Origin: Escherichia phage ZL19
Strand: one strand, 5' to 3'
DNA length: 47,884 nucleotides
Sequence record: OM258170
Shown one piece after another: positions 147 to 47,884 of this stretch. The notes beneath the pieces are model-generated. The model had not been told where the DNA came from, made no database searches, and saw nothing but the letters and a program-made list of their open reading frames with translations. Position numbers and translations under genes: made by a program. Numbering within the stretch: position 1 is the first letter of the stretch; each line of letters opens with the position of its first letter.

Positions 147-284
147 TATGTAAGTCGTGTAACGGGGGTCTCGGCGATATTTATATGTTTTTTCCTCTCA
201 GTTATAGCCTTGTCTATAATTTAGGATATGGGGGGTGTTTTTGGGCTATTTGCCTCGTTACACGCACGACACGCTACTTACACC

Positions 285-309
285 GAGCTATAGCTGGGCT
301 GAAATGCCA
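285..309. repeat. conserved 25-bp box with AGCTATAGCT palindrome (copy 1)
   Basis: GAGCTATAGCTGGGCTGAAATGCCA, 24/25 identical to 30410-30434. Confidence 0.8.
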
Positions 310-348
310 TTTCGCGTAACGACCCCTCAAAGTTACCAAAAATTACAC

Positions 349-377
349 TTGACTACATGTGTAAGTCGGGATATGAT
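349..377 (+). promoter_or_regulatory. sigma70-like promoter TTGACT-17-TATGAT
   Basis: TTGACT 349-354, 17-nt spacer, TATGAT 372-377, ~30 nt upstream of first gene. Confidence 0.6.
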
Positions 378-408
378 GGACTCAACTTAAACGAGAGGAG
401 TGATAGAA

Positions 409-888
409 ATGAACGAGAAAGTAACATTAGGCCAAGTGATTCGTGAGATGGTGAAAGCAGCGCTTAAGTCTGAGGACAAGCAAATCAGCGTGACGCTCAA
501 CAAGATTGAGAGCCTTATTGGCGCTGAGGAGGGCGGTCTACATAAGCTTAAAAGCTCATACATCTATAATACGACGGCTCGCATGCCAGAGCTGAGAGAT
601 GCAGGGCTGAAGGCAACTCACTATTATGATGAGGATGAGGGTGATAGTGAGTTTGGTGAAACCACTCTAGCTGGAGACAAAAAGCTTGTTATTAAGCTGA
701 TTCCAGGCTCAGCAAACATTGGAATCAGGAAGAAGACCAACGACGCGATCAAGGATGAGGCAATCACTGAGTTCAAGGCGAAGATTTCTAAGGTGATGCC
801 AGACATTTCGGAGTATGAGGGTGAGGCGCTTACCGCGGCTATGAAGGCCATCAAGGATTACCGTTTAATTATCGATGATATTAAGTAA
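409..888 (+). CDS. hypothetical early protein (acidic)
   Basis: Track ORF 400..888 starts at GTG; in-frame ATG 409 has RBS GAGAGGAG 9 nt upstream. Confidence 0.5.
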   Translation: MNEKVTLGQVIREMVKAALKSEDKQISVTLNKIESLIGAEEGGLHKLKSSYIYNTTARMPELRDAGLKATHYYDEDEGDSEFGETTLAGDKKLVIKLIPGSANIGIRKKTNDAIKDEAITEFKAKISKVMPDISEYEGEALTAAMKAIKDYRLIIDDIK

Positions 889-3559: not shown

Positions 3560-3697
3560 ATGATTTACATTCACACTTACTACACAGGTAAGTTTAACAG
3601 CGTCAAGCATGTTCGCGTGCATGATAGCTACGAGAGTGCAAAGGCGCAATGGCTTATTCTTGGCGGTGACATTAATTCATATAGAGTCGCTGAATAG
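3560..3697 (+). CDS. small ORF (45 aa)
   Basis: ATG 3560 with GGAGAGGG RBS; stop TAG inside next promoter palindrome. Confidence 0.3.
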   Translation: MIYIHTYYTGKFNSVKHVRVHDSYESAKAQWLILGGDINSYRVAE

Positions 3698-3737
3698 CAC
3701 GAATTGCTAAAGCAGTATTGGGGTAATCTGATATAGT
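3695..3737 (+). promoter_or_regulatory. palindrome-type promoter module
   Basis: TAGCACGAATTGCTA 3695-3709; TG-n-TATAGT 3729-3737; TACCCCATTGAAACGAG leader. Confidence 0.55.
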
Positions 3738-3768
3738 TACCCCATTGAAACGAGATGAGGAATTGGAA

Positions 3769-5422: not shown

Positions 5423-5500
5423 GCTCTGCTAGCTCAACAGGATAGCAGCAACGACCTTCTAAGTCGTAGGTTACTGGTTCGAATCCAGTGCGGAGCGCCA
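5423..5500 (+). tRNA. tRNA-Arg (anticodon UCU), CCA encoded
   Basis: 7-bp acceptor stem GCTCTGC/GCGGAGC, anticodon stem ACGAC/GTCGT with loop CTTCTAA, T-arm ACTGG-TTCGAAT-CCAGT, GG in D-loop; D-arm atypical (3-bp stem, long loop). Confidence 0.7.
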
Positions 5501-6651: not shown

Positions 6652-8217
6652 ATGTCTTTAGTATGGGAAGAAATGACCATTCAGGAAAAGATGGCCGTCA
6701 AGGCGATATCAGAACACAGCTTCGAGGGCTTTCTTCGCTGCTGGTTCCAAATCACACAAGGCGAGCGATACATCCCTAACTGGCACCACAAATATCTATG
6801 CCGAATTATCGACGAGATTATAGCAGGGGAGCGAAAGGACACCATCATCAACATAGCGCCGGGTAGTGGAAAGACGGAAATCGCTTCAATTCACTTTCCG
6901 GCCTACTCTATGGTTAAGTTAAAGAAGGTTCGCAACCTTAACATCTCTTTTGCCGACTCACTGGTTAAGCGCAACTCCAAGCGCGTACGTGACCTCATCA
7001 AGTCTCAAGAATTTCAGTCACTCTGGCCATGTAAGTTTGGCACTTGCAAAGACGATGAGCTTCAGGTTCTTGATGAGAGTGGCAAGGTGAGATTTGAGTC
7101 AATCTCGAAAGCGGCTGGTGGTCAGATTACTGGTGCTCGAGGTGGGTACATAACTGAAACATATAGCGGCGCGGTTTTGCTGGATGATTTTGACAAGCCC
7201 GCCGATATGCTATCAGCAGTGTACCGCTCGAATAATCACGTAATGCTAAAGAACACGATTCGCTCACGTCGCGCTAGCTCTGTAAAAGGAAAGGCGACAC
7301 CAATAATTTCGATACAGCAGCGACTGCACGTCAATGACTCAACGTATTTCATGATGGAAGGCGGTATGGGTATCGACTTTGACTTGATTAAGATACCTGC
7401 GCTAGTTACTGAGGATTACATAGATTCGCTTCCTGACTGGATTAAAGAACAGTTTGCGGAAGACGTATTAAGCAGTGAGTGCATTGAGCGAGATGGCGTA
7501 AAGTACTACAGCTACTTTCCTAAAAAGGAGTCAGTAAACGACCTTGTTGCGATGTGGGATAGTGACCCGTACACTTTCCTTAGTCAATATCAGCAGGAAC
7601 CTGTAGCACTAGGTGGAAACCTCATTAATGTGGATTGGTTCCAGCGAATCAGCGATACTTTCAGACCTCCAGCTAAGTATGACTATAGATTCATCACATG
7701 CGATACCGCGATGACTACAAAGAGTTATAGTGACTTCTCTGTGCTTCAACTGTGGGGATATAAGGATGCTAAGATTTACCTTATAGACCAGCGTCGAGGC
7801 AAATGGGAGGCGCCTGAGTTGGAGGCGGAACTACTGGACTTCGAGAGGAAATCAAGGGCAACCAGTCAGGTAGATGGCATCCTACGAAAAATCATCATCG
7901 AGAAGAAATCATCCGGAATCGGACTTATTCAGTCGGCAGGCAGAGTGATGAGAACGCCGATAGAGCCATACGTACCTGATAACGACAAGCTAACCAGGGT
8001 AATGAGCGCACTGCCACAGATTAAGGCTGGCAATGTAGTTCTTCCAGAATCAGCGCCGTGGTTAAGCGGATTGCTCACGGAGATTGCAGCTTTTACGGCA
8101 GATGATAGCCACAAACACGATGACCAAATTGACTGTCTAACAATGGCAGTAAACCTTGTTCTCAATATCGCAGATGATCCTAAGTCCAGATTAATGCGCA
8201 TAGCGGGAATTAAATAG
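6652..8217 (+). CDS. terminase large subunit
   Basis: 521 aa, Walker A APGSGKT, C-terminal nuclease-like region, position before portal. Confidence 0.85.
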   Translation: MSLVWEEMTIQEKMAVKAISEHSFEGFLRCWFQITQGERYIPNWHHKYLCRIIDEIIAGERKDTIINIAPGSGKTEIASIHFPAYSMVKLKKVRNLNISFADSLVKRNSKRVRDLIKSQEFQSLWPCKFGTCKDDELQVLDESGKVRFESISKAAGGQITGARGGYITETYSGAVLLDDFDKPADMLSAVYRSNNHVMLKNTIRSRRASSVKGKATPIISIQQRLHVNDSTYFMMEGGMGIDFDLIKIPALVTEDYIDSLPDWIKEQFAEDVLSSECIERDGVKYYSYFPKKESVNDLVAMWDSDPYTFLSQYQQEPVALGGNLINVDWFQRISDTFRPPAKYDYRFITCDTAMTTKSYSDFSVLQLWGYKDAKIYLIDQRRGKWEAPELEAELLDFERKSRATSQVDGILRKIIIEKKSSGIGLIQSAGRVMRTPIEPYVPDNDKLTRVMSALPQIKAGNVVLPESAPWLSGLLTEIAAFTADDSHKHDDQIDCLTMAVNLVLNIADDPKSRLMRIAGIK

Positions 8218-8257
8218 CACTAATTGCTAAACATTGAGGCCACGGATGGCGTATATT
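8215..8257 (+). promoter_or_regulatory. palindrome-type promoter module
   Basis: TAGCACTAATTGCTA 8215-8229 overlapping TerL stop; CCACGGATGGC; -10 TATATT 8252-8257. Confidence 0.5.
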
Positions 8258-8288
8258 TACCTTACACAAACGAGAGGAGAAAAGACAA

Positions 8289-28805: not shown

Positions 28806-28826
28806 TTTGTATTCCTTAGTAAGTGT

Positions 28827-28866
28827 GTTTCGTTTCGATGGAAAGATAATACCGCATCCTTGCGAT
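28827..28866 (-). repeat. 40-bp perfect repeat (promoter -10 plus leader), copy A
   Basis: Identical to 46447-46486. Confidence 0.8.
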
Positions 28867-28888
28867 AAGTGTTTAGCAATTAGTGCTA
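28846..28888 (-). promoter_or_regulatory. palindrome-type promoter module (minus strand)
   Basis: Motif TAGCACTAATTGCTA on minus strand, -10 TATTAT 37 bp downstream, leader CCATCGAAACGAAAC. Confidence 0.5.
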
Positions 28889-29158
28889 TTAGTGAATATC
28901 CTCACAGCCAGGAATGGACTTAACATTGTAATGCCGATAAGCGAATATCAAGTTAAGAGCCTGCTCGACCGTGCATTTAAGGGCGCCAGAGATAATAAAT
29001 GAAGACTCAGTGATGTGATTTATTAACTCATTTCTGACAGGGTCGTCATCTGCTAGTAACTCTGCGCGCTTAACAAAAAGAGCGTTGTTTACCAGGATTG
29101 TCACAACCTTTTCATTGAGCTCTTTCTTCGCTTTTGCAATCTCTTTCTCGTAGTTCAT
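28889..29158 (-). CDS. hypothetical protein (89 aa)
   Basis: ORF with AAGGCGG RBS. Confidence 0.4.
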   Translation of the reverse strand: MNYEKEIAKAKKELNEKVVTILVNNALFVKRAELLADDDPVRNELINHITESSFIISGALKCTVEQALNLIFAYRHYNVKSIPGCEDIH

Positions 29159-29948: not shown

Positions 29949-30052
29949 TTTAGTCTCTCTTATGTTTTTCATGTCTCAGATTTTAGCCATCGTTTGGTTT
30001 TGGTCTATCGATTTTCGGTAGACCAAGCAGCACCATTGCCGCCATGCGCCTA

Positions 30053-30095
30053 AATATACCCAAAGATAGCTAGTTGTCTTTAGCAATTGGTGCTA
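30053..30095 (-). promoter_or_regulatory. palindrome-type promoter module (minus strand) for Rha gene
   Basis: Motif TAGCACCAATTGCTA on minus strand, -10 TATATT at 30053-30058. Confidence 0.5.
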
Positions 30096-30122
30096 TTTAT
30101 CGCCAATTCCACCATAAATCAC

Positions 30123-30215
30123 AGTTACACGTAACCGATGTAACTCGATGTATACAATCTCATCCGCGGAAAATGATATACGCACTGTTACGCCAATTTA
30201 CGCATTAGTTACATT
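30123..30215. repeat. GTTAC(A/G)C iteron-like repeats including palindrome GTTACACGTAAC
   Basis: Several GTTACGC/TTTACGC/GTTACAT copies in non-coding DNA. Confidence 0.5.
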
Positions 30216-30220
30216 AAAAT

Positions 30221-30270
30221 ATCTATATATATCAACCTTTTACTCTTATTATTATTATTATATATATTAC
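30221..30270. repeat. (TA)n and (ATT)n microsatellite, AT-rich
   Basis: ATCTATATATAT and 5x ATT then TATATAT. Confidence 0.8.
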
Positions 30271-30409
30271 TGTGTATATCATGTAACTACTTCTATAGAG
30301 TGTTTCGGTTATAATTTTAATATAATGTGGATTTATACAGTATTGCGTGGCAGCTATACCAATGCACCCCGCAAGGAATGGTATACACGATATACACACT
30401 GGTTACATT

Positions 30410-30434
30410 GAGCTATAGCTGGGCTGAGATGCCA
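30410..30434. repeat. conserved 25-bp box with AGCTATAGCT palindrome (copy 2)
   Basis: GAGCTATAGCTGGGCTGAGATGCCA, 24/25 identical to 285-309. Confidence 0.8.
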
Positions 30435-30514
30435 AAAAACGTAACTAGCGGCAATACCTACACGGAATTACAAAGATTCACGCGTAAGTCTGAATCAACG
30501 ATTGGCAAAACCAA

Positions 30515-30544
30515 TTGGACTGGCTACGGTGCCGAATATATAGT
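30515..30544 (+). promoter_or_regulatory. sigma70-like promoter TTGGAC-18-TATAGT
   Basis: Followed by TACCACATCGAAAG leader and RBS of gene 30582. Confidence 0.5.
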
Positions 30545-30581
30545 TACCACATCGAAAGCAAACAACCAGAGAGATAAATAA

Positions 30582-30776
30582 ATGACCTACTACATTATCA
30601 AAGAGAAAAACAACGCACTGTTCGGTGATTGCTACTTTGGTGGGCCGGCCGGATACACCACAGATAAGAGTGAAGCTGACAGATTCGAAACTAAAGAAGA
30701 AGCCCGAGATGTGCTGACCGGTTACTTCACTGAAGAAGATTTGAAGTCTGTTAAAGTAGTTAAGGTTAAGGAATAA
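30582..30776 (+). CDS. hypothetical protein (64 aa)
   Basis: ORF with GAGAGA RBS, first gene of recombination module. Confidence 0.45.
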   Translation: MTYYIIKEKNNALFGDCYFGGPAGYTTDKSEADRFETKEEARDVLTGYFTEEDLKSVKVVKVKE

Positions 30777-30779
30777 ATT

Positions 30780-31745
30780 ATGGGCTTTAAAGTTTACACA
30801 CGAGAAGAGCTATCAAACTGGGAGTACCACGCCGAAACTGAACACATCTCAGGTAGCTCGCTTGTTGAGATTATCCAGGGATCCCCAGCTAAATGGAAGT
30901 TCAAGCAGCGCAATAATGACAGCAAGGCGCTTAAATTCGGAACGCTTAGTCACACGTACATCCTGGAAGGTGACATGTTTGATAAAGAATACCTTCGAGC
31001 TACAGACCTTGACGCGATTGAAGGATTAATTACAAGCCAGACCGGATTATCGGCAGCGCTGAAAAAAGTTGGCGTGGCTGGCACGTCAGGGAAGGGCTAT
31101 AGCGAGCTCGTAGAGATGATGTATCGCTCTGGTGAGGATTGGCCTATTGAATGGCTAATTGAGCAGCAGGAGAGCGCCAGGGCGCTTGTGGAGGGTAAGG
31201 AGCTAGTTAGCGCAGCAGACTACGACAAGGTGGTGGCGATGCGTGAGGTTCTTTGCAACATCCCGGCGTATGATGCAATTGTGAATAGCGAAACGGCGCA
31301 GAAGGAGTTATCAATCTTTGGTGAGATTCTCGGTGTTGGAGTTAAGATTCGAATAGACCACGTTGATGTTGTTGATGGTGCGGTTAAGATCACAGATTTT
31401 AAAACGACCGCCGACGCAAGCCCGGAAGGATTCGGAAAGTCTGCATTCAATCACGGATACCTTGCAAAAATGTCGCTTCAGCGCGATCTGTTTGTGAAGG
31501 CATTCAACGAGAAGCGCAAGGTTGTTGTAGGATTGCTGGCGCAGGAGAAGGTGGAGCCATACTTACCAATGCTGTACACCCTAACTGACGAACAGCTACG
31601 AATCGGCCGTCTTCAGTATCTTGAGGCGCTGGCTACTTATAAGAAGTGCAAGGAGCTAGATATCTGGCCTGGATATTCGAATGGAATTACAGAGCAAGAG
31701 CTAATGATTCCTGAGTGGGCATTAAAACAATACAAAGAAATCTAA
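30780..31745 (+). CDS. PD-(D/E)xK recombination exonuclease (putative)
   Basis: IDHVDVVDGAVKITDFKT D..D-x-K motif; adjacent to ERF and SSB. Confidence 0.6.
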   Translation: MGFKVYTREELSNWEYHAETEHISGSSLVEIIQGSPAKWKFKQRNNDSKALKFGTLSHTYILEGDMFDKEYLRATDLDAIEGLITSQTGLSAALKKVGVAGTSGKGYSELVEMMYRSGEDWPIEWLIEQQESARALVEGKELVSAADYDKVVAMREVLCNIPAYDAIVNSETAQKELSIFGEILGVGVKIRIDHVDVVDGAVKITDFKTTADASPEGFGKSAFNHGYLAKMSLQRDLFVKAFNEKRKVVVGLLAQEKVEPYLPMLYTLTDEQLRIGRLQYLEALATYKKCKELDIWPGYSNGITEQELMIPEWALKQYKEI

Positions 31746-31746
31746 A

Positions 31747-31789
31747 TAGCACGAATTGCTAAAGACAAAATTAAAAGGCGGGGTATGAT
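31747..31789 (+). promoter_or_regulatory. palindrome-type promoter module
   Basis: TAGCACGAATTGCTA 31747-31761, -10 TATGAT 31784-31789, TACCCCATC leader. Confidence 0.55.
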
Positions 31790-31818
31790 TACCCCATCAA
31801 CAACGAACGAGGTTAAAG

Positions 31819-35533: not shown

Positions 35534-35557
35534 TGTGTAAAGTCTCCATATGTAAAA

Positions 35558-35602
35558 TAGCACGAATTGCTAAAGTGGATTGTAGCATCTTTCAGGTATA
35601 AA
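35558..35602 (+). promoter_or_regulatory. palindrome-type module in plus orientation, function ambiguous
   Basis: TAGCACGAATTGCTA 35558-35572 with TATAAA at 35597-35602; no plus-strand gene downstream; 25 nt upstream of tailspike ATG on minus strand. Confidence 0.35.
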
Positions 35603-35623
35603 AAAAACCTCCCGAAGGAGGTT
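35598..35623 (-). terminator. intrinsic terminator of primase gene
   Basis: AACCTCC-CGAA-GGAGGTT hairpin followed by T8 on minus strand. Confidence 0.65.
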
Positions 35624-36596
35624 AGCTGTTCAATAAATCACTTGCCTTATATATCTTCTTCCTGATTCCGCTCTTGAATGAGTATTCATCATTTGGTATT
35701 ACCACATCAAGATTCCTCTCATCAGCAACGCAAAGCAATTCCCTATCAAGATAGCAAGCAACTCTTAACTTGAAATCTTTGAGTGCGTAAGCAACCATCT
35801 CCATGTTGTAGCTAGAGTGGCAAACAAGTACACATCGGTTGCCAGTAGCAAGATGAACACGAATACCATCAATCCAATTATCCACAAGATAAGCGTACTC
35901 ATCACTTTTAAAGGAACCAATAACAGCAACTGACTGGCGTGTGTAATATTTTGCAGCATAACTAACACCTCCCTCCTCGTTAATAAACATTACATTGCAC
36001 ATTTCTTCTGATATACCGTCACTATAAACCATAAAGCACGGTATTGCGTGTATTATTTCACCGGATTTTGTCCTGCCAACATCAAAACCAAACTCGCTAT
36101 AGATACCCTCGTATGTACTGAGCGGGGTTGATTCTACTCTTTCAGTCCTCTCCATTATCTCTAAGCATCTCTCGTGGTCAATTTGAGCGCCCATTTTGTA
36201 GAGCTTGGTTCTTGATGCTTGCTTGTTTGCCTTGTTAACAACCTCAACAGGGATAAGGCTTAACCACCCACCGAGAACATCGATACATTCACTAAATGAC
36301 TCACCTCGCATTTTCTGGACCCAAACAACACCATCTCCTGAACCGCATTGGTTGCAGATAATTCCACCATCACCATCTTCGCTAACCTTATTAGTCCATC
36401 TTGCGCGATCGTTGCCGCCGCAATAAATGCACGGCTGATGCTTTTTGGTCTGGAAAAACTTAGGGTCAGCGCCGCAGATGTTGATAAGTGCTTTATCCCA
36501 CAGGCCGCGCATTCTTGGTATAACTTCTTTCTTATCGTAGTGCATATCAATCTGTCTCTTAACAAATAAAAAAAGGATGTACCGATTATGGCACAT
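35622..36596 (-). CDS. DNA primase (zinc-ribbon + TOPRIM-like)
   Basis: CIYCGG...CNQCGSGDG zinc-ribbon motif; start could be M18 at 36545. Confidence 0.55.
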   Translation of the reverse strand: MCHNRYILFLFVKRQIDMHYDKKEVIPRMRGLWDKALINICGADPKFFQTKKHQPCIYCGGNDRARWTNKVSEDGDGGIICNQCGSGDGVVWVQKMRGESFSECIDVLGGWLSLIPVEVVNKANKQASRTKLYKMGAQIDHERCLEIMERTERVESTPLSTYEGIYSEFGFDVGRTKSGEIIHAIPCFMVYSDGISEEMCNVMFINEEGGVSYAAKYYTRQSVAVIGSFKSDEYAYLVDNWIDGIRVHLATGNRCVLVCHSSYNMEMVAYALKDFKLRVACYLDRELLCVADERNLDVVIPNDEYSFKSGIRKKIYKASDLLNS

Positions 36597-37091: not shown

Positions 37092-37133
37092 TAGCATTTT
37101 TTGTTAAAAGTCATTCTTATTTGATGGTAGTAT
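37092..37133 (+). promoter_or_regulatory. palindrome-type promoter module (variant) for helicase
   Basis: TAGCATTTTTTGTTA 37092-37106, -10 TAGTAT 37128-37133. Confidence 0.45.
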
Positions 37134-37179
37134 TGTACTCAATTAAACGCTACAAGACAATTTTTATAGGAATTTAGAT

Positions 37180-39175: not shown

Positions 39176-39595
39176 ATGAATATTACAGACAAAGTTGATT
39201 ACATTGAGTTTTACCCTGGCCCGGTTAAGTCATGCCCTAAAGAGGATGATGAACAAATCTTTTGCTCTGATTGGGTTAAGTATAACTACCCAGGGATGGT
39301 ATTTTTCCACTGCGTGAATGAGGGTAAGAAAACCATTGGTCAAGCAAGAAAAGATCAGGCTAAGGGTCTCCTTAAGGGAGTGTCAGACTGTATGTTTCTT
39401 ATACCTGAATCTATCCGAGGCAAATACCCTTTCGGAGCTATAGAGCTAAAGAGAGCAGGAAAAACGCAGGCAAGCCCAGTCAGTGAGGAGCAGAAAGCTT
39501 TCCTTAAAAGCGTAATGGAATCAGGTGGTTTCTCCGCAGTCGCCTACGGCAGGGAAGGGTTCCTTGCAGCATTCAAAGAAATGATTTCAAAATAG
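39176..39595 (+). CDS. VRR-NUC domain nuclease
   Basis: PD-(D/E)xK-type core GAIELKRAG; immediately after helicase. Confidence 0.6.
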   Translation: MNITDKVDYIEFYPGPVKSCPKEDDEQIFCSDWVKYNYPGMVFFHCVNEGKKTIGQARKDQAKGLLKGVSDCMFLIPESIRGKYPFGAIELKRAGKTQASPVSEEQKAFLKSVMESGGFSAVAYGREGFLAAFKEMISK

Positions 39596-39635
39596 CACGA
39601 ATTGCTAAATGAGATTTCAAAAGATGGGGTATAGT
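39593..39635 (+). promoter_or_regulatory. palindrome-type promoter module
   Basis: TAGCACGAATTGCTA 39593-39607 overlapping stop; -10 TATAGT 39630-39635; CATCGAAACGAAACGAAG leader. Confidence 0.55.
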
Positions 39636-39671
39636 TACTTCATCGAAACGAAACGAAGAGAGAGAAACAAA

Positions 39672-44083: not shown

Positions 44084-45667
44084 TCACCCCAACAGTCGTG
44101 GATTAATGTAAACTTTATCACCAATCAGGCACGTATAGTTTTTCTCATCAAGCATTGGCAGTAAGTGATCTTTAATCTTTGTCATTACACCAGCCTGAGC
44201 TTCGAACGGCTTAACCTTACGAGCCGCTTCATATAGAGAACGAATACCCACTACTCCTTTACCGTTCTTGCCTTGCTTAATTAGAATATCAATCAGCTTA
44301 TTCATCTCGGCATTGTCGCCAGCGTGACCAGCGGCGTTTGCAGATGACAGATAAGTCTTGCTAAGTTCATGGAACATAATTACAGCTTCTTGCATGGTGT
44401 CGAGCTCGATCTCTCTGGACTTCTGTGGACTACCGCCATTTGGGTTGAACCAGTTGCGCACAGTGTGAAGAACAGCTGCAATCCTTATGGCCTGCTTATC
44501 GAACTTACCCAACGCGCCACGTAACATTGTGTGTGAATACTTCCCGCCATCTGCAAGGTGAGGCTCCATCTCCTGACGCGCACGGTTGAGGTATTTCATC
44601 GCTGAGTTGCTAACTGTCAATTTCACTTCTTGCTCGTTCATGATCTCGTGAACCAGACGGAAATAGTTAGCCTTCAGCTCACCATCAATTGGCTCGTATG
44701 TTGAGTTGCCATTCTCATCAACGAATACGCGCTCACCAAGGAATGATTTTTCACGAACCAAAAGGAAACGTTCAGATACACCGATACCACGCGCACCAGC
44801 ATTCATGATGGCGTTGATTGTTTCATCCTGCGCAATTACAGAGATGCAACCCATAGCAACGAAACTCATGTTATTTTCTGCGTTGGCACGCGCGATAGAT
44901 ACGTTACCAGCGTCCCACGCTTTCAGTACAAGCTCGCTGTTCGTTTTCTTGGATCCGTCGCCATATGTCATACCAAGTAGTGAGTTCACGCTCGTTGCTT
45001 CATCCGAGATCACGGCAAAGTTACCCTGGCGGTTGTTTATTCGCGCAAGACCTTCAGGTGTGGTATCTGACACGGGGAAAACGATATCGCATAGCTTCTC
45101 GAGCTTCTCCTCTAACTCCTCTTTCTCCTCAAAAAGTGAGGCCATCTCTGATGGTGACTTCTCCTGCTTCATCTCTTTGGATAATGCAGATAGTTTTGCC
45201 ATGATCTTCTTGCGCTCACGCTTTCGCACTTCATTCAGTCGCTCAGTCTCAGCAATCATTGGAGCAATTGAAAGTGAGTTAATGGCTGACTTACCAGTCG
45301 ATGGTGGCTGGCTTGTTACGACGTAAAGCGAAGTCGGTTGCTGGGTTCCATGATACTCTACAGTAAAACGTCCAAGCATCGCCGCAGAAATACATCCCAG
45401 GAAGTGCATATAAGCAGATGACTCAGGGAACTGGACTGAGCGAGCGATGTTAGATGAAAGTTTACCAACAACATCAATGTCATTGCCGAGTGAGATTACG
45501 GGGTACTTGTCATTAGCAGCATCAATCTCGACTGGTGCTTTCCAGAATGATTGAGACTGACGATAGCCATTAGCATTAATAGCGACGCGCAGGGGTGAGA
45601 GGTTGTCTGCGGCAGCAATTGCCATAACCTGTTCAACAGATAGTTTATCTTCGTTGAAATCAAACAT
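44084..45667 (-). CDS. P-loop NTPase of unknown function (possibly DUF3987-like)
   Basis: 527 aa; Walker A SQPPSTGKSA and Walker B VISDEAT; GGAGAGAAG RBS. Confidence 0.6.
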   Translation of the reverse strand: MFDFNEDKLSVEQVMAIAAADNLSPLRVAINANGYRQSQSFWKAPVEIDAANDKYPVISLGNDIDVVGKLSSNIARSVQFPESSAYMHFLGCISAAMLGRFTVEYHGTQQPTSLYVVTSQPPSTGKSAINSLSIAPMIAETERLNEVRKRERKKIMAKLSALSKEMKQEKSPSEMASLFEEKEELEEKLEKLCDIVFPVSDTTPEGLARINNRQGNFAVISDEATSVNSLLGMTYGDGSKKTNSELVLKAWDAGNVSIARANAENNMSFVAMGCISVIAQDETINAIMNAGARGIGVSERFLLVREKSFLGERVFVDENGNSTYEPIDGELKANYFRLVHEIMNEQEVKLTVSNSAMKYLNRARQEMEPHLADGGKYSHTMLRGALGKFDKQAIRIAAVLHTVRNWFNPNGGSPQKSREIELDTMQEAVIMFHELSKTYLSSANAAGHAGDNAEMNKLIDILIKQGKNGKGVVGIRSLYEAARKVKPFEAQAGVMTKIKDHLLPMLDEKNYTCLIGDKVYINPRLLG

Positions 45668-46429: not shown

Positions 46430-46446
46430 TTTCTTTACCTTTCGTT

Positions 46447-46486
46447 GTTTCGTTTCGATGGAAAGATAATACCGCATCCTTGCGAT
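46447..46486 (-). repeat. 40-bp perfect repeat (promoter -10 plus leader), copy B
   Basis: Identical to 28827-28866. Confidence 0.8.
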
Positions 46487-46508
46487 TCTGTTTTAGCAAT
46501 TCGTGCTA
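46466..46508 (-). promoter_or_regulatory. palindrome-type promoter module (minus strand)
   Basis: Motif TAGCACGAATTGCTA on minus strand at 46494-46508, -10 TATTAT 46466-46471. Confidence 0.5.
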
Positions 46509-46653
46509 TTTCGTGCCTTTTCTATCGCCTTGAGCATAATTTCATGACTCTCAAGCAAGTCTTCGCGAAACCAGTCGCCGCAGGGCCAACCCTTTCCGCT
46601 GTAGGCGCTAATAACTTCCAGATCGAAATAATTTATCTCAGATGGTAGAAGCA

Positions 46654-47652: not shown

Positions 47653-47695
47653 ATATTACCAGTTTCTTGATTTATGTCTTTAGCAAAAAGTGCTA
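47653..47695 (-). promoter_or_regulatory. palindrome-type promoter module (minus strand)
   Basis: Motif TAGCACTTTTTGCTA on minus strand at 47681-47695, -10 TAATAT at 47653-47658. Confidence 0.45.
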
Positions 47696-47715
47696 TTCGT
47701 CAGATTTATGGATTG

Positions 47716-47796
47716 TTGCAGATATTGCAATGATTTAGATGACTATTGCACATATAGCAATATTTCTTCATATGCAATGATGTTTTTGATTGTTGC
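47716..47796. repeat. cluster of inverted and direct repeats (TTGCA-N5-TGCAA, ATTGC-N7-GCAAT, TGCAATGAT x2, GATTGTTGC x2)
   Basis: Palindromes at 47716-47730 and 47745-47761 plus direct repeats, non-coding, near window end. Confidence 0.6.
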
Positions 47797-47884
47797 GAAA
47801 AGTGAAATGAATTGGGGAGCGAGTGAATGAAAGATTGATGGACTACCATACAAGTTGATTTTGATTCTGGGTGAACCATTTTTG

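Follow-up and report, generated by a model that had tools for sequence, protein, structure and literature searches.

Layout of the divergent gap and its paralogue

The DNA considered here, record OM258170 of Escherichia phage ZL19 (47,884 bp at full length, the window), is the complete genome of a T1-like siphovirus (Drexlerviridae, Braunvirinae), for which the closest DNA matches are Rao1, BEK2/3 and CEB_EC3a. Its genes run rightward from 400 to 28,502 and then in alternating blocks, and transcription diverges at three junctions, namely 29,949-30,581, 37,115-37,179 (65 bp only) and the wrap-around junction from ~47,700 to 400. The first of these, a gap of 630 bp between the start of the minus-strand Rha gene (29948, or 29972 for a longer open reading frame, ORF) and the ATG at 30582 of the plus-strand recombination module, carries an ordered element of short repeats, an AT tract and a box, and a paralogue of this element lies at the genome start. 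The element in the gap is referred to as copy B and its paralogue as copy A, and both are discussed below as candidate replication origins.

A sequence-only reading of the gap had reported GTTAC(A/G)C repeats, including a palindrome. These repeats are present (21 matches to GTTACRC alone genome-wide against 8.2 expected), as is the palindrome, GTTACACGTAAC at 30124-30135, and the repeat is best written as WTACRY, which takes in TTACGC, TTACAC, TTACAT, ATACGC and TATACA. WTACRY occurs 15 times in 30120-30500, against 6.0 ± 2.2 times in shuffled sequence (maximum 13), and 12 times in 1-380, against 4.1 ± 1.9 times (maximum 11); the null was formed by 1000 local dinucleotide shuffles, none of which reached the observed count in either copy. 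Compared with the genome average of 1.7 per 381 bp, both copies are enriched 7-9 fold. The repeats are spaced by 9-12 bp, which is roughly helical. In copy B they fall into two modules, of which the second begins ~90 variable bases past the first.

30124-30155, unstranded: left repeat set of module 1, with direct TTACAC at 30125-30130 and inverted ACGTAA at 30129, ATGTAA at 30139 and ATGTAT at 30149, at 10-bp spacing
30163-30173, unstranded: conserved spacer motif CCGCGGAAAAT, of which a variant heads module 2 (30368-30379) and which is found twice in Rtp region A
30178-30214, plus strand: four direct repeats (ATACGC at 30178, TTACGC at 30188, TTACGC at 30198, TTACAT at 30209), spaced by 10, 10 and 11 bp and abutting the AT tract
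30215-30270, unstranded: AT tract of 56 bp, a candidate unwinding element, with (TA)n, an IHF-core match, (TTA)5 and TATATAT
30272-30289, minus strand: two inverted repeats right of the AT tract (GTGTAT at 30272, ATGTAA at 30281), with a column identity of 1.00 in close relatives
30290-30367, unstranded: variable spacer between the modules, including the half-box CAGCTATA at 30351-30358
30368-30409, plus strand: head of module 2, consisting of CCGCAAGGAATG (30368-30379) and then direct TATACAC at 30382, TATACAC at 30392 and TTACAT at 30403
30410-30434, plus strand: box GAGCTATAGCTGGGCTGAGATGCCA, 25 bp, which takes the place in module 2 that the AT tract takes in module 1
30439-30491, unstranded: right repeats of module 2, with inverted ACGTAA at 30439, copies of CTACAC and ATTACA, and the palindrome TTCACGCGTAAG (30476-30487)

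Within the AT tract, (TA)n occupies 30223-30232, (TTA)5.3 occupies 30246-30261 and TATATAT occupies 30259-30267. The arm ATGTAACTA, right of the tract, is the exact complement of TAGTTACAT at 30206-30214, and a period-10 array spans 30131-30152 in the left repeat set. The same ordered architecture had been noticed at the window start, and this holds for 1-380, where the corresponding modules are as follows.

1-164, unstranded: module 1 of copy A, with inverted repeats at 8, (18) and 27, direct repeats at 47, 56, (66) and 78, an AT tract at 84-146 containing (TA)7 and (ATT)7, and inverted repeats at 148 and 157
255-378, plus strand: module 2 of copy A, with direct repeats at 258 and 278, the box at 285-309, an inverted repeat at 314 and the sigma-70 promoter TTGACT-17-TATGAT (349-377)

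Alignment of 1-400 with 30100-30500 also recovered the relationship, in two significant blocks, one of 41 nt at 85% identity (E = 5e-10) and one of 165 nt at 66% (E = 1e-5). The box, GAGCTATAGCTGGGCTGARATGCCA with one R position, occurs exactly twice in the genome (285-309 and 30410-30434; 0 expected). Copy A heads the operon that contains the DUF3987 helicase, ~2 kb away, and copy B heads recE/erf/ssb, the two copies being 18 and 30 kb apart. In Rtp and SU57 (L007, 165-300; L028, 60-200) a B-type module 1 (TATATATCAACCTTTTACT...) is found at junction A, where the window phage has a distinct A-type, in effect a natural exchange of one paralogue for the other; the paralogues A and B therefore appear to be interchangeable.

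Conservation and duplex stability of the modules

The region matches 134 phage records, of which 15 phages were aligned for the analysis of conservation, and column identities for close relatives were taken from 11. Module 1 (30122-30289) forms a conserved island, with a mean column identity of 0.89-0.94 across two subfamilies, compared with 0.34-0.65 in the flanking untranslated and promoter DNA of the 15-phage alignment. Its left repeat set is nearly invariant in the 15 phages. Of the 40 columns formed by the 4-nt repeat cores of module 1, 37 (93%) are invariant, against 60 of the 139 other columns (43%; Fisher p = 6e-9), a footprint that suggests selection on the repeats as units. BLASTN aligns the Rogunavirinae loci over essentially the core and a piece of promoter only, and not over the neighbouring genes. 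Even T1, which belongs to another subfamily and is diverged in sequence, has its highest WTACRY density, together with (TA)n tracts, at the same two junctions, where the repeat takes the variant forms ATTACGCC, GTGTAACAG and GATTAACAC. The sequence-only reading had made its interpretation depend on conservation of the box and the repeats in related phages, and both are conserved, the repeat as invariant cores and the box in variant forms.

The AT tract is the most conserved segment of the region, with an identity of 0.99 in the close relatives and a fixed length. It had been described as a (TA)n/(ATT)5 microsatellite; such a tract is indeed present at 30215-30270, but it does not vary in length as that name would imply. 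The arrangement around the tract is likewise constrained, because the innermost opposed repeats are separated, centre to centre, by 72 bp in 10 of 14 B orthologues (63-71 bp in the other four) and by 70 bp in all nine A orthologues. Pairing between the arms that flank the tract is kept in some relatives and broken in SU57, DTL and ACG-M12, and the arms are therefore more readily understood as oriented binding sites than as a required cruciform, which was rejected. An exact match to the IHF core consensus WATCAANNNNTTR, namely TATCAACCTTTTA at 30230-30242, lies in the middle of the tract; seven such matches occur in the genome, and this one is kept in the Braunvirinae B copies and has no counterpart in copy A. 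The homologous region of BEK6 (MN158208) contains a homing-endonuclease gene, which adds ~450 bp.

The box was also found where the earlier reading had placed it, at 30410-30434 and in two copies, but the 10-bp palindrome that it was said to hold is often broken (TATGG for TATAG). Its consensus across relatives is AGCTATRGCTKGSYT-N5-TGCCA, and while it is well conserved in copy A, its conservation in copy B is lower. A hairpin or palindrome as the conserved feature of the box was accordingly discarded, as was a sigma-70 promoter (TTACAY-16-TGARAT), since copy A of Rtp retains the box and loses the -10; the box is presumed to be a protein-binding site. A scan of viral contigs for the box returned 2 loci only. 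BLASTN of the element against E. coli genomes and plasmids gave no match, and thus no satellite or plasmid among them borrows the element.

The two least stable 40-bp duplexes of the 47.9-kb genome, as calculated with nearest-neighbour parameters, are the two AT tracts (97-136, z = 5.0; 30226-30265, z = 4.4), the next unrelated site having a z of 3.2. The unwinding prediction that had been proposed as a check therefore singles out both tracts, and the stability minima of T1, Rtp and Rao1 fall at the same two loci. No convincing internal promoter was found between the outward promoters, and the spacer between them is thus probably untranscribed.

Candidate replication proteins and the origin reading

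The phage encodes neither a DNA polymerase nor a recognised initiator; it does encode a zinc-ribbon primase at 35622-36596, a Cro-like regulator of 169 aa and a superfamily 2 (SF2) helicase. Two further genes bear on how the modules might be used.

44084-45667, minus strand: DUF3987 protein of 527 aa, a candidate MCM-like (superfamily 6, SF6) replicative helicase; DUF3987 match at E = 6.5e-42, PHROG annotation 'DNA helicase'
409-888, plus strand: gene 1 (DUF7174), nearest gene on the right of copy A, which may encode a winged-helix protein that binds the repeats, as a lead only

The best PDB matches of the AlphaFold model of the DUF3987 protein (predicted local distance difference test score, pLDDT, 87.8) are MCM2-7, archaeal MCM and Cdc6/Orc1, with E-values down to 4.5e-6 at a template-modelling (TM) score of ~0.34. 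This agrees with the published assignment of DUF3987 to the MCM-related SF6 replicative helicases with a C-terminal winged helix (PMC4889955), and helicase activity has been shown for one DUF3987 member (PMC11724360). In two distant phages, each with a DUF3987 protein only ~35% identical, a divergent gap of 620-690 bp lies directly upstream of the helicase operon (L025, 9059-9681; L026, 8512-9200). One of these gaps has G5 runs on one side and C5 runs on the other, and CTTACCG repeats are found in the second. The repeats of either gap enclose a (TA)n-rich stretch at which duplex stability within the locus is lowest. The distant helicase operons also hold an SF2 helicase and an exonuclease, with SSB in one of the two.

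DUF7174 is also encoded first right of copy A in Rtp and probably in T1 (a weak Pfam match, E = 2e-4). Its model (pLDDT 74) has a winged-helix topology with the helix KSSYIYNTTARM; a Foldseek search with it returned nothing significant, and hhalign detected no similarity between DUF7174 and the origin-proximal gene of a distant phage. These scores are too low for a claim, and DUF7174 is put forward as a candidate lead for the repeat binder. The layout around copy A is nevertheless that of iteron plasmids, in that direct repeats adjoin an AT tract and an inverted pair covers the promoter of the putative winged-helix gene beside it.

We tentatively interpret the gap module and its paralogue at 1-380 as a pair of replication origins of the iteron-plus-unwinding-element type, a reading to which we give slightly less than even probability. 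The sequence-only reading had taken the iterons and the AT-rich tract as the usual signature of an origin, and that proposal remains the best supported, by phased and footprinted repeats, by the stability minima, by the fixed spacing of the opposed repeats, by a family-wide layout, by the location of the element between diverging promoters, by the MCM-like helicase and primase of the phage and by the parallel gaps at the helicase operons of the two distant phages; each copy combines a helically spaced cluster of short repeats with an adjacent AT segment that is easily melted. The architecture, conservation, stability minima and non-coding status of the modules and the helicase fold are observed, whereas binding, melting, helicase loading and initiation at these sites are inferred.

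Initiation might proceed as follows. The repeats lie on one face of the helix and are directed toward each other across a tract of 56-62 bp, and on either side of this tract they would be coated by a protein of the phage, for which the candidates are the DUF7174 winged helix, encoded next to copy A, and the C-terminal winged helix of the DUF3987 helicase. Diverging transcription would generate negative supercoiling that helps to melt the tract; the MCM-like DUF3987 helicase would then be loaded together with the zinc-ribbon primase, and the host polymerase would take over. By binding inverted pairs at the early promoters, the repeat-coating protein may also shut those promoters off. Iteron-binding plasmid initiators repress their own promoters.

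Several observations weigh against an origin. The repeat, as defined from the sequence of the window itself, is only 6 bp long, and copies of it bracket the -35 of the copy A early promoter, as operators would. The AT tract is conserved in exact sequence and length, which a mere unwinding element would not need, and this may point to a sequence-specific function, for instance that of a promoter or of a site for a protein. Neither copy contains a perfect DnaA box or a GATC, as would be expected of an oriC-like origin, and the one-mismatch matches to the DnaA box are the TATACAC repeats themselves. The GC/AT skew tracks gene orientation, with minima at all three divergent junctions; because it follows transcription, it cannot locate an origin. 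Copy A, finally, abuts the inferred genome end of SU57, so that a packaging role cannot be separated from this copy. Hub or packaging functions may, however, coexist with origin function.

A further possibility, which we consider improbable, is that both modules form one integrated control system instead of two redundant origins. In it, DUF7174 alone, as a winged-helix protein bound to the repeats, would couple origin firing, shut-off of the host-type early promoters and the neighbouring start of packaging at copy A, and the sites would cooperate by looping like ori and crr of P4. The MCM-like helicase would be loaded onto the strictly conserved (TA)n/(ATT)n tract in a sequence-specific manner, and the tract would not be a generic unwinding element.

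Bounding promoters and alternative functions

The gap sits between two outward-facing promoters of the standard type of the phage, the motifs of which recur upstream of every operon.

30053-30098, minus strand: leftward promoter of the Rha operon, consisting of the 21-nt repeat AAATAGCACCAATTGCTAAAG (30098->30078) and a -10-like TATATT (30058->30053)
30494-30581, plus strand: rightward promoter and leader of the recombination module, consisting of a degenerate 21-nt repeat, TGGACT-17-TATAGT (30516-30544), the leader TACCACATCGAAAGCAAA and a ribosome-binding site before the ATG at 30582

The promoter that had been placed after the box is thus TGGACT-17-TATAGT, whose -10 and leader belong to the promoter family of the phage itself. 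A 21-nt intergenic repeat, aaATAGCACnnnTTGnTAAAA, has been published for TLS, T1 and Rtp, in which it precedes most operons, without an assigned function (PMC11447400). In the gap its usual form (aaATAGCACnnnTTGnTAAAA directed toward a gene, ~76 nt from the start codon) is found on a flank only, as AAATAGCACCAATTGCTAAAG directed toward Rha. It resembles the present element in that it bounds the gap, with a good copy on the left (30078-30098, minus strand) and a degenerate one on the right (30494-30512), but it is associated with promoters and numbers ~15-20 per genome, whereas the module of WTACRY repeats, AT tract and box is a separate element that occurs twice only. A sigma-54 reading of the 21-nt repeat and of the box was discarded by inspection because of wrong spacing.

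At ~15 sites in the genome the promoter cassette comprises AAATAGCACNNNTTGCTAAA with the inverted repeat TAGCA-N5-TGCTA, followed ~20 nt on by TATAGT or TATGAT and then by TTACC...CATCGAAACGAGAGGAG; examples are 2910-2958, 3691-3739, 8213-8279, 31743-31807, 35554-35581, 39589-39657, 46485-46511 (minus strand) and 47678-47697 (minus strand). The centre of its palindrome lies near -42, where a class II activator would bind. A 65-nt segment with a promoter and leader on the minus strand is shared, at 91% identity, by 28826-28890 and 46446-46510, where it heads the cor-lipoprotein gene and one gene of the left early operon. In Rogunavirinae the promoter of this 65-nt segment directly abuts the core of element B, and the Rha gene block therefore looks like an insertion. 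A tRNA gene lies at 5423-5497 (Rfam RF00005, 55.9 bits), and relatives have been reported to carry a tRNA-Arg.

The element might instead be purely regulatory, the repeats being operators through which an early regulator of the phage would switch the diverging early and middle promoters at the two junctions, and the AT tract an UP-like or bending element or a set of weak promoters, with no role in replication. In favour of this account, which we rate as rather unlikely, an inverted pair, TTACAC (343-348) and GTGTAA (359-364), brackets the -35 and spacer of the copy A sigma-70 promoter, the arrangement in SU57 is similar and the T1 repeats lie just upstream of the -35; furthermore, the repeats are confined to two junctions with host-type promoters, and the exact conservation of the AT tract is easier to reconcile with a promoter than with a simple unwinding element. 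Both AT tracts contain weak sigma-70-like matches on both strands, but their number (7 against 4.0 ± 2.2 expected) is not significant. The phased sites extend over ~350 bp and mostly lie 150-400 bp from the promoters, whereas bacterial promoter control usually needs far less, and regulation leaves unexplained both the global stability minimum at the AT tract in four genomes and the same design at the helicase operons of distant phages. It is, moreover, compatible with an origin and does not exclude one. The module could also be part of a packaging signal, in which repeats for the small terminase surround a bendable AT segment as in the pac of P1 or SPP1, with copy A as the active pac and copy B secondary or vestigial; we regard this as quite unlikely. 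In its favour, hexamer repeats stand on both sides of the cut in the pac of P1; against it, T1 has a single pac. The pac of T1-like phages has been placed in the untranslated region at the genome start (PMC7718038), the ends of the SU57 record, which were set from read coverage, lie ~20 bp left of the first copy A repeats, a later paper credits an earlier study with proposing ATATA repeats in this T1 region as pac, and in the Jk06 and phiJLA23 records the genome is opened within the B core. On the other hand, the module, of which copy A abuts the inferred SU57 end, is present twice per genome in every relative rather than as the single site expected of a pac, while TLS yields one submolar pac fragment (PMC11447400), and ~6 kb separate the element from the gene for the small terminase. 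Missing from copy B, furthermore, is the ATGCAATGAT / GATTGTTGC block, which lies left of the SU57 end (47700-47800), is conserved in T1 and Rtp and is a better pac candidate than the shared module.

Two other accounts, in which the region is transcribed or translated, are less probable still. Transcription from a promoter in the AT tract, with the box acting as an RNA element (a leader, a nut/put-like antitermination site or a small RNA), would agree with the shared orientation of the two box copies, both of which precede a rightward operon, with the many intrinsic terminators between the genes of the phage and with a weak TTTACT-18-TATATT match at 30239-30268. However, the box lies upstream of recognisable promoters in both copies, Rfam gave no match in the region at gathering thresholds or at E <= 1 (only the tRNA elsewhere in the window), the RNAalifold signal of the core, assessed with column shuffles, reflects the inverted DNA repeats only (module 2, plus strand, z = 0.6), no pattern of compensation is seen among the variants of the box (TATAG to TATGG, GGGCT to GGCTT) and no terminator-like hairpin occurs in the region, all of which makes an RNA function very unlikely. 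Translation of the ORFs 30148..30411 or 30327..30581, the second as an N-terminal extension of the 64-aa gene at 30582, is hardly credible. The second ORF is in frame with 30582..30776, a fused ORF is annotated in CEB_EC3a (143 aa), Rtp46 and BEK2, and a 143-aa PHROG family exists. Yet in nine close relatives the variable columns are divided among codon positions as 39/36/35 of 84 each and 27/25/25 of 87 each, with no third-position excess; compared with its relatives, the window is shorter by a 2-nt deletion, 12210I carries an insertion of 1 nt, stops interrupt SU57 and TR2, and DTL lacks 53 nt. In addition, TAA TAA precedes the ATG, and the 64-aa gene has its own ribosome-binding site and a promoter 40 bp upstream. 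The fused form is probably an over-extended start, and the earlier view that 29949-30581 is non-coding and that its listed ORFs are spurious is borne out, there being no codon periodicity of substitutions and the frames being shifted or broken in relatives.

The block at 47700-47800, named above as the better pac candidate, holds the repeats ATTGTTGC, TTGCAATGAT, ATTGCAC and AGCAATATT; it occurs at junction A only and is conserved from the window phage to T1 and Rtp. Counterparts of this block lie at L006 1-60, L007 1-60 and L029 690-790, and the SU57 ends lie just right of the block. The linearisation of the Jk06 (DQ121662) and phiJLA23 (NC_047740) records inside the B core could reflect either a genuine end or an artefact of assembly at the AT tract.

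Known systems and significance

The proposed origin function of the modules can be set beside several known systems. Satellite phage P4 has two distant clusters of a short repeat, direct and inverted, in ori and crr, which are bound by the phage primase-helicase and are both needed in cis; its repeat is the octamer TGTTCACC, its enzyme is a primase-helicase fusion of the SF3 type and its sites are 4.5 kb apart. A comparable cooperation between the two T1-like copies would be pure speculation. The iterons of the plasmids F (RepE), R6K (pi) and pPS10 (RepA) measure 17-22 bp, compared with the 6-bp core in the T1-like phage, and plasmid Rep proteins have two winged-helix domains and recruit the host DnaA and DnaB, whereas DUF7174 would have one at most, its similarity being below a safe threshold. 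In the ori of phage-inducible chromosomal islands (PICIs; SaPI and E. coli), two sets of short iterons flank an AT-rich putative melting site in non-coding DNA, and the islands have their own helicase and primase (PMC6092414). The PICI ori directly follows the pri-rep genes and occurs once per element, whereas the T1-like element has two copies, lies between diverging promoters and at least 2 kb from the helicase gene, and has an extra box module and a helicase of the DUF3987 type. The Bacillus phage SPP1, like the present phage a pac-type headful siphovirus, has two origin regions, oriL and oriR, that are bound by one phage protein, and its oriL resembles the present modules in combining AB-box repeats with an adjacent AT-rich unwinding element (PMC5737612). 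SPP1 differs in that its oriL is contained in the initiator gene and in that its helicase, of the DnaB-like type, has a loader; there is no sequence similarity, and binding and replication have been demonstrated for SPP1.

In the T1 family itself, a re-annotation of TLS (2024) reported no origin-type repeats anywhere in the genome (PMC11447400), no origin was found in SU57 (PMC7718038) and other papers on T1-like phages rely on GC skew only for origins. The literature searched yielded neither marker-frequency or cloning data for the element nor a transcriptome of a T1-like phage. In the open literature, coverage of which did not extend to the original T1 and Rtp genome papers, an origin-like element in the T1 family therefore appears to be new, although elements of this kind are well known.

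T1, which belongs to the seven classic T phages, is notorious for contaminating laboratories and fermenters. The candidates described here are precisely bounded (30120-30290 and 30368-30490; 1-165 and 255-380), and the open question of the origin is thereby narrowed to a defined repeat, a defined melting tract and named candidate proteins. If the origin reading is true, these phages would provide an example from bacterial viruses of origin-dependent loading of an MCM-related (DUF3987) helicase, and the modules would be a target for CRISPR-based or decoy-based decontamination.

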